Part shown: positions 51,782-62,765 of the stretch, piece after piece
How the letters are laid out: each line of letters opens with the position of its first letter
Position numbering within the stretch: position 1 is the first letter of the stretch
Virus record (IMG/VR): IMGVR_UViG_3300014205_000174
Strand: one strand, 5' to 3'
DNA: 64,000 bases
Source of the DNA: a virus
Lineage: Duplodnaviria > Caudoviricetes
Made by a program: the position numbers and the translations under genes
Notes under the pieces: model-generated
The model's database searches: none
What the model was told of the DNA's origin: nothing
The model's input: only the letters and a program-made list of their open reading frames with translations

Positions 51782-54700
51782 ATGGGCGTAACAAAGGCCA
51801 CTAAAAATAAACCGACCAGTAAAAAGCCTTCTGCCGCGAAGGCCGGTGTTGTATTGCCTGTACCGGCAACGCCAGCTCAATTGCGCCGTCGCTGGAATAA
51901 AAAAACTAGCCAGGTGGAAAAGCTGGCAAATAATATCCAAAGCCTGCGGTATAATCTCACTACTGATATGAAGAGTGATGACCAGAAGGTGTTTCTGACG
52001 GCTCTTTGTGTAAAGTGCATGGAGCTTACTGGTGAGCGTGTCGGCAATGACGAAAGCGCTGCTAATGGGCATAGGGGTATTACTGGATTGCTTAAATCCC
52101 AGGTAAAGGTAGAAGGTAATAAGGTTTCATTCCGGTATACCGGTAAGTCCGGGGTTAACCAGGATAAATCCGTAACGGATGAAAAACTCGCTGATGGCAT
52201 ACGTCGTGCGAAGGAAATATCCAAAGCGAAGTATCTTTTTTGTACAGATGACGGGTTTAAGATAAAGAATGACCGCGTCAACAGGTATCTGGCTGACTTT
52301 GAGATTACGGCAAAGGACTTGAGGGGCTTTTCTGCCAACCGCTGGCTGATACAGAAGTTAGTGGCCAATGATATCGCTGACGAGGAGAAGGACAGAAAAA
52401 AAGACTTCAATGCATTTGCAAAGGTTGTTGCTGCGAAAGTGGGCCACGGTACCGGCATGCTGAAAAACCAATACCTCATACCGGGGTTGGAAAAGGCGTA
52501 TGTAGAGGAAGGCAAAATAATAGACATCAAGGATATTGCCGGATATAAAAAAGGTGGTGGCGTTGAAAAGATGGAAAAGGGTGGTGTTGTGGCTAAAAAA
52601 GAATCCACTAAAAAACCAAGTCCCAGTGAACCTGCGGGAAAGACAATAAAATATTCCGAGTTTAAAGAAGATATCCAAACGTTTATATTTCAGTTCCTAG
52701 AGGATAGCGGGGCTCCGGATAAGATTCTCGATAACCTATACCGCGCAAGGTTTGTGGTTAAGCCGTATCCTATAAAAAATATTTCTCCGGAAGTAAATGA
52801 GGCGTCCCTGGATAAAGACCGGGGTGTACAACATGCGGCAAAGTTCAAAAAAGACAAGTACCAGCCGGTAATATTTTTCAACAACAAACTGATTGATGGC
52901 TTCCACAGGGCCTATTCTGAAAAACAAAAGGGTGCATCGGTTCTGTATGGTATCGAGCTGTCTGATGTTTTGCATGAAAAGAAGGCGGAGCTGAAGGCCG
53001 GCGGCCAGGTATCCAAGCCCGACCCATTTAACGAATGGTTTGCCGGCAGTAAAGTTGTCGATAGCAAGGGCCAGCCACTTATTGTTTATCATGGCACCGA
53101 TGCTGAAAATATTACAACATTCAATATTGATTTAGTTCGCGATAAATTTGGTTTCTGGTTTTCTGACGATAAGGAGTTCTCGGAAATGTTTGGCACTACA
53201 GCCATACCGGTATACCTGTGCATTAAAAACCCGCATGTAATAAGCAAAGAAAAATGGGACGATATCCGACGTGCGCATGCAAAAGATGCAGTGTGGTTTG
53301 CATCATGGCGTGACCAGTTAATATCCAAAGGTAAAGATGCGCTGATAATTGAAAGCAGCGATACGACCTTTGCTGGCACGAAAATACGTAATCCAGAAAT
53401 TTATGCGGTATTCCATCCAACGCAAATAAAGCTTGCTGACGGCTCCAATACCACATTTGACGGCAACAACCCAGACATTCGATTTGAGAAGGGCGGCCAT
53501 ATATATCGCAGTGTTGGCATGGAAGGTTACCTGGTGGGTAAAAGCAGGTGTCCATATATCGGCAAAGAAAAAGAAATTGATGCTTACGACACGGATATCC
53601 GTTGCTTCGTTTCCGAAACCAACGATACCTACCGGTTTATTTATGTTGTAAACAAAAAGAATGTTTCCGTTCTTCATATTCAAAAGGAAGGTGCTGACTG
53701 GGTAATCCGCAATGCATTTACCTTAGAGCATCACCGCAGACATGGGTATGGCCGGAGTCTTTACCTTGAGGCGCAGAAACATTTGCGCAGAGTTGTATTT
53801 TCGTCCAATTTGAGCCAGGAAGGCAAGGCATTTAAAGAAAATGTTACTCTAGAAATGCATATTGGTAATAATACGGAAATCGGTAGGATTGACGATGAAA
53901 CAGATACCCAGTTTCAGATAAAAGGAACGTGGTATGCAAAATGGATAATAAAGCCAGCGGCGGTCGCTGAAGATAATGAAGGTATACTTGTTCCGGATAA
54001 GATAAAGCCGACGATGATTATATCTGCATTTTCAAATGAGATGGATTGGGATAAGGTAGAGCGGTATGCTGATATTATGAAGGAAAGTGGTATGGAGCAT
54101 GGTTTCCCTGCTATATCTGGGTATCCTATTATTATTGATGAAAACGAAATTGGAGACCAGTTTCTTACCGGTGAGGAAGTGTCTGAACATCATGTTGGTC
54201 AGTTAGCGTGGAAGGTAACCAACGGCCATCATCGTTCTTTGGGGGCCATAAAGGCAGCTCTGCCATGGATTGACGTTGAGCTTGATTATAGTACGGTAAC
54301 TAACATGGAGCGCCATAAGCGCACAAACGGCAAGTACTACGAATCTGGCGGCATTACCGAAGATGATGAACCGAAGTCGACATTAGACCAGCTAAAAGAA
54401 GATGTTTCCGCTTGCAGGAACTTTGACATTTTCAGGGGCAGAATTGCCCTGCGCGAACCAGATGAGGTTAACGAGATAATGACTGTCCTTGGTCTTGAAA
54501 AAGCAACTACCAGGGAAATTGGTGATATTAATCTGAAAAAGCTGAAGGACTTTTATACTCAGGAAAAGCGCATAGTAAATGAGCGTCGTAAGATAAGGGG
54601 CAATGAGGCGGCAGCTATCCGCACTGAAAAAAATGTTGAGAATATCTTTGACCTTGCTAAAATATTAGGTGACGACATGGATAAGGCTGTACTGGATTAC

Positions 54701-56251
54701 GAAGAAAAGAAAGCCGCTATCAAATACCCGGTACAATTAATTACCGTGGAGCCATCTATTTTAGATGTGCTCAATGGCCTTTCGGATAAAGGATGCAGGG
54801 CGCTGATAGTTGGTGGCGCTGTCCGTGACGCTATTCTGGGCATCACCCCGAAAGATATAGACATAGAGGTTTATAACATAACCTACGCAGACCTGAGCGA
54901 ATACTTATCGCAGTACGGGAGAGTTAACCTTGTTGGTAAGAACTTTGGGGTTATTAAGTTTAATCCGGCAGCAGGTGGAATGGAATACGACTTCTCCGTT
55001 CCAAGAAGGGAAAACAAGATAGGTGTAGGCCACAAAGAATTTGAAGTGACCTTTGATACCACCATGACCATAAAGGATGCCGCAATGCGCAGGGACTTTA
55101 CGTTTAACTCCCTTGCGTATGACCCGGTATCCAATACGGTGTATGATTACTTTAATGGCCTGATGGATATCCGGCTCAAAGTAATAAGGCACACGTCTGA
55201 AAAGTTTACTGAGGACGCGCTGAGAATACTCAGGGCCATGCAGTTCCAAGCCAGATTTGATTTCACCATCGCTGAGGATACCAATACCTTAATGCGGGAA
55301 ATGCTTACTACCTCTGATGAGTTTGCATCCTTGCCAAAGGAGCGTGTTTTCGAAGAGTGGTACAAGTGGGCCTCAAAGGGCGTCCGCCACGACCTTATAT
55401 TCTCGTTCATGCGGGATTGCGGCCTTATCGACTGCTACCCGGTATTAAAGGCGCTGGCAGAAACGCCGCAGGACGCTGTGTATCACCCGGAGGGGAATGT
55501 GGAGGTGCACACTACCTTATGTCTGACTTATATGGACTCTATCTTGTCCCGGATGCCGGATATCCCGGCTGACGAGAAAGTAGTGCTGGTAATGTCCACG
55601 CTGCTTCATGATGTCGGTAAGCCTGCAACTACAGAGGAGCAGCTAAAGAATGGCAGAATGACGATTACAAGCAATGGCCATGAGGCATTGGGCGGTAAGA
55701 TGTGTCATGATTTTTTACCTTCGCTTGGGTTCCATAAAGATTTGGTAGACCCTATAGCTAATATTGTAGCTAATCATTTGGCTGGCGTGAATATTACCAT
55801 GATACCGCATGAGAGTGGCAGGGTAAAGGCAGTAAAGAAGCTAAGTAAGCGATTGTACCCGGCAACTATCCAGCAATTGCTGCATGTGATGGATGCAGAC
55901 AGTAATGGGCGTGGCTGGGAAGAATACAAAGAACCTACCGGTGCAAAGGAGCTGACGACCATAGCCGCAGACATAAACGTGACGGACAGGCCCTATGAAT
56001 TTATACTTCTGGGGCGTCACCTTATAGAAGCAGGGCTAAAGCCGTCTCCTGCATTCGGGGAGATTTTACGTAAAGCAAACGAGGCCCAGTTAAACGGCGA
56101 ATTTAATGATATTACCGGTGGCAGGCAGTGGCTGAAGGATAATTTGGATAGCTTTGTCAATGGCGGCATTATTAGTGCACCAGTTGATTTGTTTGCCGAC
56201 TCGCCTGGTGCACCAGTTGTAAATAGTGCAGTGCCGGACTTATTTCAATAA
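51782..56251 (+). CDS. polyvalent protein: topoisomerase IB / ParB-like / ART-like / GNAT / ParB-like / CCA-adding enzyme with HD domain
   Basis: TopoIB R86, K122, R181, H222, Y231; IDGFHR; PLIVYHGT...GFWFS...E.YAVF.P.QIK; HRRHGYG; VTNGHHR; VGGAVRD..DIDIE, RRDFT.N, EDALRILR, HPEG.V..H, LLHDVGK. Confidence 0.85.
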   Translation: MGVTKATKNKPTSKKPSAAKAGVVLPVPATPAQLRRRWNKKTSQVEKLANNIQSLRYNLTTDMKSDDQKVFLTALCVKCMELTGERVGNDESAANGHRGITGLLKSQVKVEGNKVSFRYTGKSGVNQDKSVTDEKLADGIRRAKEISKAKYLFCTDDGFKIKNDRVNRYLADFEITAKDLRGFSANRWLIQKLVANDIADEEKDRKKDFNAFAKVVAAKVGHGTGMLKNQYLIPGLEKAYVEEGKIIDIKDIAGYKKGGGVEKMEKGGVVAKKESTKKPSPSEPAGKTIKYSEFKEDIQTFIFQFLEDSGAPDKILDNLYRARFVVKPYPIKNISPEVNEASLDKDRGVQHAAKFKKDKYQPVIFFNNKLIDGFHRAYSEKQKGASVLYGIELSDVLHEKKAELKAGGQVSKPDPFNEWFAGSKVVDSKGQPLIVYHGTDAENITTFNIDLVRDKFGFWFSDDKEFSEMFGTTAIPVYLCIKNPHVISKEKWDDIRRAHAKDAVWFASWRDQLISKGKDALIIESSDTTFAGTKIRNPEIYAVFHPTQIKLADGSNTTFDGNNPDIRFEKGGHIYRSVGMEGYLVGKSRCPYIGKEKEIDAYDTDIRCFVSETNDTYRFIYVVNKKNVSVLHIQKEGADWVIRNAFTLEHHRRHGYGRSLYLEAQKHLRRVVFSSNLSQEGKAFKENVTLEMHIGNNTEIGRIDDETDTQFQIKGTWYAKWIIKPAAVAEDNEGILVPDKIKPTMIISAFSNEMDWDKVERYADIMKESGMEHGFPAISGYPIIIDENEIGDQFLTGEEVSEHHVGQLAWKVTNGHHRSLGAIKAALPWIDVELDYSTVTNMERHKRTNGKYYESGGITEDDEPKSTLDQLKEDVSACRNFDIFRGRIALREPDEVNEIMTVLGLEKATTREIGDINLKKLKDFYTQEKRIVNERRKIRGNEAAAIRTEKNVENIFDLAKILGDDMDKAVLDYEEKKAAIKYPVQLITVEPSILDVLNGLSDKGCRALIVGGAVRDAILGITPKDIDIEVYNITYADLSEYLSQYGRVNLVGKNFGVIKFNPAAGGMEYDFSVPRRENKIGVGHKEFEVTFDTTMTIKDAAMRRDFTFNSLAYDPVSNTVYDYFNGLMDIRLKVIRHTSEKFTEDALRILRAMQFQARFDFTIAEDTNTLMREMLTTSDEFASLPKERVFEEWYKWASKGVRHDLIFSFMRDCGLIDCYPVLKALAETPQDAVYHPEGNVEVHTTLCLTYMDSILSRMPDIPADEKVVLVMSTLLHDVGKPATTEEQLKNGRMTITSNGHEALGGKMCHDFLPSLGFHKDLVDPIANIVANHLAGVNITMIPHESGRVKAVKKLSKRLYPATIQQLLHVMDADSNGRGWEEYKEPTGAKELTTIAADINVTDRPYEFILLGRHLIEAGLKPSPAFGEILRKANEAQLNGEFNDITGGRQWLKDNLDSFVNGGIISAPVDLFADSPGAPVVNSAVPDLFQ

Positions 56252-61128: not shown

Positions 61129-61671
61129 ATGACACCAGATAAAGTAAAGAAAAGAATTTCCCCATACCTTGAAACCATTACAGAAGCATGTATATTTTAT
61201 CCTTTATTGGATACTAAAGGATATGGCAGCATTCAATATAGGGTGCCAGGGAAGAAAGTGCATTACAGAGCGCATAGGGTCTCTTTTGAATTAGCAAATA
61301 ACTGCGAATTACTGCAAGCAGATGTAATATTACACTCCTGCGATAATCCAGCATGCATTAACCCGCGCCATCTTACTAAGGGTACTCACGAAGATAATCA
61401 GCGGGATAAGATGGCTAAGGGCAGGCAGGCCAAGGGTAAAACCAATGGCAGATACGTGCATGGTTATTATTCAAAGTTTGAGCCTGTGGCAAAACCTGTT
61501 CCGGATTTTCAGACTTTATGTAACAGAAGTATTTCTCTTGAAACTGCAAAAGCGATTAAAAGCAGAATTAAAGTCGGCGGCTGCAAGTTAATAGACCTAT
61601 CTAAGGAGTTCGGCATACCGTACCAAACTATAAAAGATATTAGTGCAGGAAGGGCATATAAAAACGTATAG
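61129..61671 (+). CDS. HNH endonuclease with C-terminal HTH
   Basis: GYG...AHRVS...ILHSCDNPACINPRHL..GT..DN..D...KGR. Confidence 0.88.
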   Translation: MTPDKVKKRISPYLETITEACIFYPLLDTKGYGSIQYRVPGKKVHYRAHRVSFELANNCELLQADVILHSCDNPACINPRHLTKGTHEDNQRDKMAKGRQAKGKTNGRYVHGYYSKFEPVAKPVPDFQTLCNRSISLETAKAIKSRIKVGGCKLIDLSKEFGIPYQTIKDISAGRAYKNV

Positions 61672-61690
61672 CTGTCCAAAATTTTGATTT

Positions 61691-61714
61691 TTGGCACGAG
61701 TTTTGCTATATTTG
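61691..61714 (+). promoter_or_regulatory. overlapping sigma54-type and Bacteroidota primary-sigma promoter of the tmRNA
   Basis: TTGGCACGAGTTTTGC immediately followed by TATATTTG. Confidence 0.7.
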
Positions 61715-62126
61715 TGTTGCACGTTTGTTGAGGCTTTTTGAGAATCTGTAAGACCCGAGTTCGACTCTCGGCGACTCCTCAAAATTGCGGTTAGTAATAT
61801 ATGTTGGTGTACAACAATTTATATGAAAGGGTGTATCCATTATTGCAGCTCCTGGAATTCAAACGGTTGAGCGCGAAAAAAATACACGGCGGCAGCCCGC
61901 AATGATATTATTAGTCATGAGTAAGTACATGACTCGCCACCCTATCAACACGGGGTCGACTGGCTATCGATTGCAGAGGATGGAAAGTGGAGAATGTGTA
62001 ACATTGAACGGCAACACAATTGCTTTTACTCCGGTTTACTCTATGAGAAAAACTGCGTAGTACGAAATTAAGCTCCAGCGAAAACGGGGCCAGAAGGAGC
62101 AGGCGTAAGTCTGCTCCTTTGCTTTT
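61715..62126 (+). ncRNA. ssrA: circularly permuted (two-piece) tmRNA
   Basis: Acceptor piece first (T arm CCGAG-TTCGACT-CTCGG, CGACTCC 61772-61778); coding piece starts GGGGTCG at 61952 (G3.U70); P2 TTGCAGA/TCTGTAA; tag frame 62010-62060. Confidence 0.85.
62094..62126 (+). terminator. intrinsic terminator ending the tmRNA
   Basis: AAGGAGCAGGC-GTAA-GTCTGCTCCTT with T-rich tail. Confidence 0.75.
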
Positions 62127-62132
62127 GCGAAT

Positions 62133-62149
62133 TTGGCCCGATATTTGCG
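62133..62149 (+). promoter_or_regulatory. sigma54-type promoter
   Basis: TTGGCCCGATATTTGCG upstream of the small ORF ending at 62351. Confidence 0.55.
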
Positions 62150-62347
62150 AATAAATAAAATACAAAATACAAATAGCACAATCATGACAGCAGAAGATAT
62201 ATCTACAAGCATTGAATCCATCCTGAACGGCGCTTCCAAAGAGTTAGGCCCTATGGATTATAAGCGTCTCTTGCGCGACATCCGTTCTGAAATTGATATT
62301 AGGATTGATTGTTTGGAATTGGATGAGCAGAATGCCCAGGCTGAGGG

Positions 62348-62765
62348 CTAAGCGGTCATTTTTATTTCCATCGTAATGGCTAATTTAGCTTTTTGCCTTT
62401 CTGTTTTAGGGCTAATTACTTTATTTGGCTGGCAAAATATGCACGAACATGGCTTTCCATGAGACCGGAATGCGTGGAGGTTACTGGTATCGGATTCCTT
62501 CAGACCATAATTTTTAAGACGCTTTTTGTACTTAAGCATCTTCTTTTCATGTCGTAGGGCTTTGTTTGCGTTTTTCATTACCATCGTTTTTGATATCCAG
62601 CATGATAGATGCCGCTGTTAAAGATACACCAATAGTCATGGCTGTATTCCACCTGTATGCATCCGGATTGGTTGCCTGTGATATCGCATAAACAAACGCG
62701 CCAAGAGCTATAATGGATAAGCACTGCGACAATTCACTTTTTTTACCACCCTCAATCGTGTACAT
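62348..62765 (-). other. two small genes (62547-62765 membrane; 62348-62584 basic with CSC..C)
   Basis: Overlapping minus-strand ORFs. Confidence 0.5.

Follow-up and report, generated by a model that had tools for sequence, protein, structure and literature searches.

We consider it likely that the 64,000-nt stretch of viral DNA analyzed here (the window) carries a genuine two-piece (circularly permuted) tmRNA gene. The gene would be a member of a group of pared-down phage tmRNAs that owe their tRNA-like domain to the one-piece tmRNA of the Bacteroidota type. Two-piece tmRNAs are textbook knowledge for three bacterial lineages. They have been described in Alphaproteobacteria, in some Betaproteobacteria and cyanobacteria, and in marine phages (Melnitz and pelagimyophages) (PMC9004378). 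These tmRNAs are circularly permuted like the one of the window, and tRNA-processing enzymes are believed to cleave their precursor, leaving two pieces held together by base pairing. Their carriage by phages is well documented, with 53 of 133 unique phage tmRNAs being two-piece according to ARAGORN (PMC9004378).

Organization of the permuted tmRNA gene

A preliminary description of this locus, made from its letters without database searches, had proposed a minimal tmRNA gene in which the acceptor piece precedes the coding piece. Our reading of positions 61500 to 62400 confirmed all of its elements and their coordinates, base for base (Table 1). The gene is organized as one unit, where a promoter is followed by the acceptor piece, a 172-nt spacer, the coding piece, and a terminator. 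The two strands of the 7-bp acceptor stem (GGGGTCG/CGACTCC) pair at all seven positions, with the G3.U70 pair that had been noticed. The P2 helix has the three parts described (7, 6, and 11 bp), forms an interrupted helix of about 25 bp in all, and comes to within 6 nt of the resume codon, GGC. These 6 nt are all that separates P2 from the resume codon, which bears out the proposal of a permuted and minimal gene with no room for pk1. The offset from G1 to the resume codon is 58 nt, and past the tag the gene contains nothing beyond a short tail and the terminator. In sum, the gene presents an acceptor stem with G3.U70, a T-arm and a D-loop analogue, a long P2, and a tag frame, and it lacks two features of tmRNAs, the A73 discriminator and a pk1 upstream of the resume codon.

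Transcription is predicted to start at about 61717 to 61721 by either of the two overlapping promoter motifs, i.e., at the first P2 strand. Among the related genes described below, TATATTTG or TAAATTTG is found at the equivalent relative place in L241/L242 and L240. The segment TTGTGTTGC (61712 to 61720) lies at the predicted transcript start or just upstream of it, and all of its 9 nt are complementary to GCAACACAA (62011 to 62019) at the start of the tag frame. This pairing would be an alternative to the outer P2 helix, is possible only with a start upstream of about 61713, and was not seen in L199.

Table 1. Coordinates of the permuted tmRNA gene, its neighborhood, and related features in other records
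Feature	Record	Position	Strand	Remarks
Polyvalent protein, 1489 aa	Window	51782-56251		Topoisomerase IB core, ART-PolyVal, CCA-adding and HD domain; 5.5 kb upstream of the tmRNA gene
CCA-adding enzyme and HD domain (aa 1007-1440 of the polyvalent protein)	Window	54800-56101	+	Domain matches
HNH endonuclease gene	Window	61129-61671	+	PHROG and Pfam HNH matches; ends 44 nt before the acceptor piece
Promoter region	Window	61683-61714	+	Sigma-54-type -24/-12 motif overlapping Bacteroidota-type TTTG...TATATTTG
Sigma-54-type -24/-12 motif TGGCACGAGTTTTGC	Window	61692-61706	+	Motif match
Bacteroidota-type motif TTTG...TATATTTG	Window	61683-61714	+	Match to TTTG-N-TAnnTTTG
Acceptor piece	Window	61715-61779	+	Three P2b strands, T-arm, acceptor 3' strand, discriminator U
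P2b strands TGTTGCACGTT; GCTTTT; TCTGTAA	Window	61715-61725; 61733-61738; 61745-61751	+	Sequence reading
T-arm CCGAG/TTCGACT/CTCGG	Window	61755-61771	+	Perfect; sequence reading
Acceptor 3' strand CGACTCC	Window	61772-61778	+	Sequence reading
Discriminator T (U in RNA)	Window	61779	+	Followed by CAA; CCA not encoded
Intervening segment (spacer), 172 nt	Window	61780-61951	+	Presumably discarded in maturation
Coding piece	Window	61952-62126	+	Sequence reading
Coding piece, 5' part	Window	61952-62009	+	Acceptor 5' strand, D-loop analogue, three P2a strands, spacer TTGAAC
Acceptor 5' strand GGGGTCG	Window	61952-61958	+	Pairs 7/7 with CGACTCC; G3.U70
D-loop analogue ACTGGCTATCGA	Window	61959-61970	+	Includes GG and TCGA
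P2a strands TTGCAGA; GAAAGT; AATGTGTAACA	Window	61971-61977; 61983-61988; 61993-62003	+	Sequence reading
6-nt spacer TTGAAC	Window	Within 61952-62009	+	Between P2 and resume codon; sequence reading
Tag reading frame	Window	62010-62060	+	Resume GGC at 62010; tag GNTIAFTPVYSMRKTA; 16 codons; stop TAG at 62058-62060
Coding piece, 3' tail	Window	62061-62126	+	GTACGAAA motif and intrinsic terminator
GTACGAAA motif	Window	62060-62067	+	Its G is the last base of the stop codon
Intrinsic terminator hairpin AAGGAGCAG/CTGCTCCTT	Window	62094-62119	+	Strong hairpin, then T-run to 62126
Sigma-54-type motif sites	Window	6174, 12947, 13950, 29810, 32215, 60022, 60787, 61692, 62134
HNH-homologous ORF	L190	2565-2929		Directly upstream of permuted tmRNA
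HNH-homologous ORF	L165	1704-2225		Directly upstream of permuted tmRNA
cr10_1 tmRNA	NC_055875.1 / MT774382.1	26352-26737		Annotated; crAss-like phage
cr130_1 tmRNA	NC_055901.1	82000-82390		Annotated; crAss-like phage

Folding and model searches

The structure exceeds what chance would give. The P2 duplex has an energy of -25.2 kcal/mol versus -12.5 ± 2.6 in 2,000 dinucleotide shuffles, none of which was as good (z of about -5). When the 412-nt precursor was folded without constraints, the acceptor stem was recovered together with each of the three P2 helices in both the minimum-energy and the centroid structure (z = -2.6; none of 100 shuffles as good). A simple scan for permuted tRNA-like domains, run over the window and about 100 kb of related loci, returned this gene as its sole site. 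A highly structured spacer was unsupported (fold z = -1.7; 10 of 200 shuffles as good), and Rfam had no match within these 172 nt.

The standard tools proposed in the preliminary description as checks gave a mixed answer. ARAGORN made no call on the gene, even with thresholds down to 70%. The model for permuted tmRNAs (RF04321, tmRNA_permuted) does align to positions 61721 to 62023 with 32.4 bits (E = 1.3e-4, 1 kb searched), which is below its gathering cut-off of 47 bits, and an Rfam search of the whole window at gathering scores gave no match to the tmRNA gene. The models of the alphaproteobacterial, betaproteobacterial, and cyanobacterial types (RF01849, RF01850, and RF01851) had no match to the window at E ≤ 10. 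In the RF04321 alignment the spacer is taken as one insertion and the hairpin of the model between P2 and the resume region is deleted. The low score of this copy is accounted for by its U discriminator, its inserted tag with a KTA end, and its spacer, the longest in the group.

Relatives in metagenomes and crAss-like phages

A pattern scan of metagenomes for the T-arm retrieved at least 120 loci, mostly ordinary one-piece tmRNAs. Six of the matches listed were called permuted by ARAGORN (L199, L165, L190, L221, L239, and L187). One of them, L187, is of a different permuted type, with an encoded CCA, 54% G+C, and 125 nt before the tag. L199 lies inside a tRNA cluster on a 170.7-kb contig and has the tag GNTNHMSIAA. 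When IMG/VR was scanned with additional patterns, L240 joined the list, as did L241 to L244 with the tag GKTIEMKMAA, and a blastn match of the T-arm of L241 led to the phages cr10_1 and cr130_1, whose records already annotate a tmRNA that ARAGORN calls permuted in both. Altogether, we found 10 further distinct relatives of equal build (permuted, CCA not encoded, no room for pk1), originating from JGI metagenome contigs, IMG/VR viral contigs, and the two RefSeq crAss-like phages. The members of the group are L199, L165/L190, L221/L239, L240, L241 to L244, cr10_1, and cr130_1. ARAGORN called every one of these relatives permuted except L240, which it missed. Their RF04321 scores range from 45.6 to 54.8 bits, with only L165 (45.6) below the cut-off of 47. 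The betaproteobacterial model gave partial matches of 25 to 34 bits (cut-off of 84), and the alphaproteobacterial and cyanobacterial models gave no match to them.

The gene of the window is 83% identical to that of L199 in the acceptor piece and 77% in the coding piece, and no near-identical relative was found. Exact 19-nt and 24-nt patterns of its tRNA-like domain had no match in IMG/VR, and blastn of the genes of the window, L240, L199, and L190 against 50,697 phage records gave none. A degenerate 5' pattern (GGGGNNGACTGGNTNTCGA) had 25 matches, all of them by chance within coding DNA.

The genes of cr10_1 and cr130_1 resemble that of the window in the succession of acceptor piece, spacer, and coding piece, in the unencoded CCA, in the Bacteroidota-type tRNA-like domain, and in a resume codon 61 to 68 nt from G1, so that pk1 is absent. 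They match RF04321, match the betaproteobacterial model weakly and partially, and in cr10_1 the tag also starts with Gly (GNNF...). They have no blastn-level similarity to the window outside the T-arm and differ from it by an A discriminator, by tags ending in VA, and by being accepted by ARAGORN and Rfam, whereas the copy of the window, with its U73, its KTA end, and its spacer of 172 nt, is missed by these tools. Their spacers (99 and 103 nt) contain T-arm-like hairpins, AGAGG-TTCGACT-CCTCT at about 1245 to 1265 of the cr10_1 locus (L245) and CCAG-ATTCGACT-CCTGG at about 1300 to 1325 of the cr130_1 locus (L246). Neither ARAGORN nor Rfam called a tRNA there, and the hairpins may be processing signals.

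These relatives bear on the novelty of the gene. The permutation had been read as an invention of this phage, which is contradicted by the same build in 10 other distinct sequences, two of them annotated in RefSeq. The gene is therefore no one-off, since it belongs to a group present in public phage genomes. In the literature we found no description of a permuted tmRNA lineage of Bacteroidota phages, of its lack of pk1, or of its Bacteroidota-type origin. The group is thus known in public records, yet we did not find it described in searchable papers.

Shared architecture of the group

All members have the acceptor piece first, then a spacer of 27 to 172 nt, and then the coding piece. In all of them the CCA is unencoded, the discriminator is followed by C and then by A or G, and P2 consists of three parts, with the extreme 5' end of the acceptor piece making up the outermost helix. 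The resume codon follows G1 at a distance of 58 to 68 nt, and 6 to 13 unpaired bases precede this codon in a hand alignment, implying that pk1 is absent in the whole group. Among the matches listed, one-piece tmRNAs with the same T-arm have 80 to 124 nt at this place (mostly 93 to 98, with an outlier of 196). Behind the tag, the genes of the group have only a short tail, in which a GTACGAAA-like motif is frequent, before a terminator or the next tRNA. The gene of the window fits this definition in its permutation, its CCA-less end, its offset, its three-part P2, and its Bacteroidota-type tRNA-like domain. The GTACGAAA-like sequence TACGA[AC]A recurs after the tag stop in the window, L240, L165, and cr10_1, and in our reading of the related sequences this motif or a close variant often lies in a hairpin loop.

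The helices covary. Pairs of the T-stem and acceptor stem vary on both sides, with G3.U70 kept in nine of nine cases. P2 was not recovered by MAFFT plus RNAalifold, because its segments are of unequal length, and we folded cognate against non-cognate strands instead. Cognate P2a and P2b strands had a mean energy of -29.3 kcal/mol versus -20.3 ± 3.8 for non-cognate combinations, the cognate partner came first in its row for six of eight members, and the pair of the window was the most stable.

The tag frame has homologues as well. The resume context AACGGCAACACAA is identical in the window and L199, and the resume codon is supported by homology, since ARAGORN calls GGC in L199 and L241 where they align with it. 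When aligned (L241, GKTIE------MKMAA; L199, GNTNH------MSIAA; window, GNTIA-FTPVYS-MRKTA), the tag of the window is homologous to those called by ARAGORN in the other two, with an insertion of 6 codons (18 nt) and a change of AA to TA. Its penultimate codon (ACT, Thr) is one base away from the GCT of L199.

The homologues elsewhere in identical order argue strongly against a chance resemblance or a tRNA or tmRNA fragment, such as the 3' end of a host ssrA left behind at an attachment site, beside unrelated sequence. The T-arm and acceptor are indeed identical to the 3' ends of host-type tmRNAs, which integrating elements often carry. The window, however, has both tRNA-like halves in permuted order between a promoter and a terminator, its P2 covaries, its tag frame has homologues, and no integrase was seen among the window proteins scanned. 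The locus could also be a minus-strand gene for a small protein, given an ORF of 84 codons (61911 to 62165) that overlaps it, but the ORFs overlapping the tmRNA gene have no family matches. We regard such explanations as very improbable and close to refuted.

Discriminator, tag, and spacer of the window's copy

The T discriminator, which had been pointed out as unusual, is real and stands out in the comparison with other T-arm sequences. Among the matches listed, 117 of the 119 sequences with the same T-arm have A at this position, one has C, one has G, and none has U. All 10 relatives have A, making U peculiar to the copy of the window. Outside mitochondria, every known tRNA-Ala sequence retains A73, and its alteration severely affected the recognition of minihelices by AlaRS (PMC9976931). 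U73 shields Gly-tRNA-Gly from the DTD deacylase (PMC9976931). The uniqueness of the U suggests that charging could be weakened. The lack of an encoded CCA is common in this class, where only 42 of the 119 sequences listed encode it. The tag is also atypical: in six of the eight distinct tags of the relatives, the final AA or VA comes after a hydrophobic residue (the remaining two have the ends MAS and HVA), unlike the KTA of the window. Finally, its spacer is the longest of the group, with 27 to 107 nt in the relatives. In our reading, the U discriminator and the KTA end are oddities derived in this copy, and they may lower charging and weaken protease targeting. The RKTA end had been proposed to alter the proteolytic fate of tagged proteins, and the U discriminator may just as well signal reduced charging.

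The same oddities would fit a copy that is decaying or has changed its function, i.e., a true homologue that is poorly charged or does not tag because of U73 and the altered tag. It would be a pseudogene-to-be or a tRNA-like decoy that binds the SmpB or ribosome of the host and disturbs its trans-translation. The unique U73 and the weight of A73 for AlaRS (PMC9976931) speak for this, together with the RF04321 score, the lowest of the group, the spacer, the longest of the group, the inserted tag, and the KTA end. A precedent comes from mycobacteriophage DS6A, whose tmRNA-like RNA has no CDS and reportedly inhibits the tmRNA of the host (PMC11915505). Like the gene of the window, it is a phage-encoded reduced derivative of tmRNA; it has no tag frame, while the window keeps a homologous frame with resume and stop codons. 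Against this reading stand a promoter, a terminator, a 7/7 acceptor stem, a G3.U70 pair, and a T-arm that are all intact, a resume context identical to that of L199, and a frame open to its stop. Moreover, the P2 of the window is the most stable in the group although it is unlike that of every relative in sequence, which points to compensatory maintenance. We therefore consider a decaying or repurposed copy unlikely.

If the gene encodes a genuine two-piece tmRNA, as we favor, RNase P would cut before G61952, an RNase Z-type or exonuclease step would trim after U61779, and a CCA-adding enzyme, either of the host or a domain of the phage itself, would complete the 3' end. The spacer would be lost and AlaRS would charge the RNA via G3.U70. 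SmpB and EF-Tu of the host would then bring it to ribosomes stalled on broken mRNAs, where translation would resume at GGC and append (A)GNTIAFTPVYSMRKTA. The benefit for the virus would be to keep ribosomes free during infection.

Origin of the group

The tRNA-like domain links the group to one-piece tmRNAs. The 20 nt of the T-arm and its junction are identical in many one-piece bacterial tmRNAs, and the T-arm is identical in more than 100 bacterial tmRNAs among the matches listed. In L121, L144, and L204, one-piece tmRNAs with the tags GENNYALAA or GEGNYALAA, we find the complete acceptor stem of the window, its GACTGG motif, its T-arm and junction, and an end that likewise lacks CCA. One-piece tmRNAs of this type, including those with the tag GNTQYAMAA, also have a Gly resume codon, and their 3' end reads ACAA in place of the TCAA of the window. 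They differ in having pk1 to pk4 and a resume codon at about 93 to 103 nt, whereas the gene of the window is permuted and has lost everything between the tag and P2b. Most other members of the group carry the D-loop form GGTTTTGA. This TTTTGA form of the D-loop was found in 13 of 31 one-piece genes with Gly-start tags and in 0 of 44 with Ala-start tags, among the matches listed.

Gly-start tags ending in ALAA or AMAA are what we take to be the Bacteroidota type. "GENNYALAA" occurs in no searchable paper, and a weak taxonomic lead for the label is that one protein of L121 belongs to a cluster in which most of the known members are from Bacteroidota. The virus itself had been described as of the Bacteroidota type, and this is supported: a Shine-Dalgarno-like motif precedes just 5 of 80 window genes, and the match of the tRNA-like domain agrees. 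The primase of L244 has relatives in phages of Cellulophaga, Flavobacterium, and Olleya, and crAss-like phages infect Bacteroidales (PMC6235969). A TnpB-like transposase of the window has its best genome matches (40 to 44% identity) in cyanobacteria and Firmicutes and gives no host assignment. This large uncultured virus probably belongs with Bacteroidota hosts.

The tmRNA database sorts every permuted gene into the alpha, beta, or cyano type (PMC11915505), and in 29,415 Bacteroidota genomes it counts 24,380 one-piece genes and just 48 permuted ones (PMC11915505, Table S2). An independent permutation had been proposed for the gene of the window. The idea is unsupported for this virus alone and is plausible for the group as a whole, because its domain matches the Bacteroidota-type one-piece tmRNA and its members fall short of the alpha, beta, and cyano models, which likewise miss the gene of the window. 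The comparison is one of short tRNA-like domains, and on it a separate permutation of a Bacteroidota-type tmRNA is plausible.

A broader scenario, which we hold to be possible though short of probable, is that the group forms a fourth independently permuted lineage, derived from a Bacteroidota-type one-piece tmRNA by loss of all four pseudoknots, including pk1. It would circulate in mostly Bacteroidota-linked viruses (crAss-like phages, viruses resembling Flavobacteriia phages, and this jumbo virus), moving at least in part together with the gene of an HNH homing endonuclease as one cassette, and U73 and the KTA end would mark a shift, in this copy, to ribosome rescue without canonical proteolysis.

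Genomic neighborhood

In L190 and L165, an ORF stops a few bases short of the permuted tmRNA, and its product is 50% identical over 116 aa to the HNH protein encoded upstream of the gene in the window. These contigs have nothing else in common with the window. Syntenic relatives of the window (L001 to L006; contigs of 174 and 199 kb, among others), found through an 833-aa neighbor protein, have no tmRNA in the corresponding region, where the whole RNA island is missing. As they keep the surrounding gene order, the tmRNA gene lies in a variable island, where it probably arrived together with the adjacent HNH gene. Adjacency elsewhere and absence in the syntenic relatives suggest either that the HNH and tmRNA genes form a mobile cassette or that the endonuclease homes to sites beside tmRNA genes. 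The HNH gene probably accompanies the tmRNA gene as a partner of the homing type.

The polyvalent protein encoded further upstream has homologues in the syntenic relatives (439 to 853 aa) that lack the CCA-adding part. This domain could supply the CCA, but the gene can be explained without it: most tmRNA genes with this T-arm do not encode CCA, so the CCA enzyme of the host would suffice. The sigma-54-type motif TGGCACG-N4-TTGC occurs nine times in the window (seven exact copies) versus 1.2 expected, with one copy before the tmRNA gene and one before the next small gene, of which they are the predicted drivers.

Implications for annotation and tmRNA biology

Standard annotation (ARAGORN, or Rfam at its cut-off) overlooks the copy of the window, and it is not alone in this. 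ARAGORN also missed the permuted gene of L240, which scores 53 bits on RF04321, and twelve one-piece genes that have 60 to 175 bits on RF00023 (L125, L127, L142, L143, L154, L155, L156, L166, L179, L207, L216, and L233). With these two permuted genes and at least a dozen one-piece genes missed, counts of phage tmRNAs are underestimates.

Should the group stem from its own permutation of a Bacteroidota-type tmRNA, it would represent a fourth origin of the split form. If functional, its members are natural tmRNAs that make do with a single long helix besides the tRNA-like domain and the tag frame, and such minimal tmRNAs bear on the long-discussed need for pk1. The conserved pairing of HNH and tmRNA genes suggests a route by which such RNA genes move between unrelated viruses.
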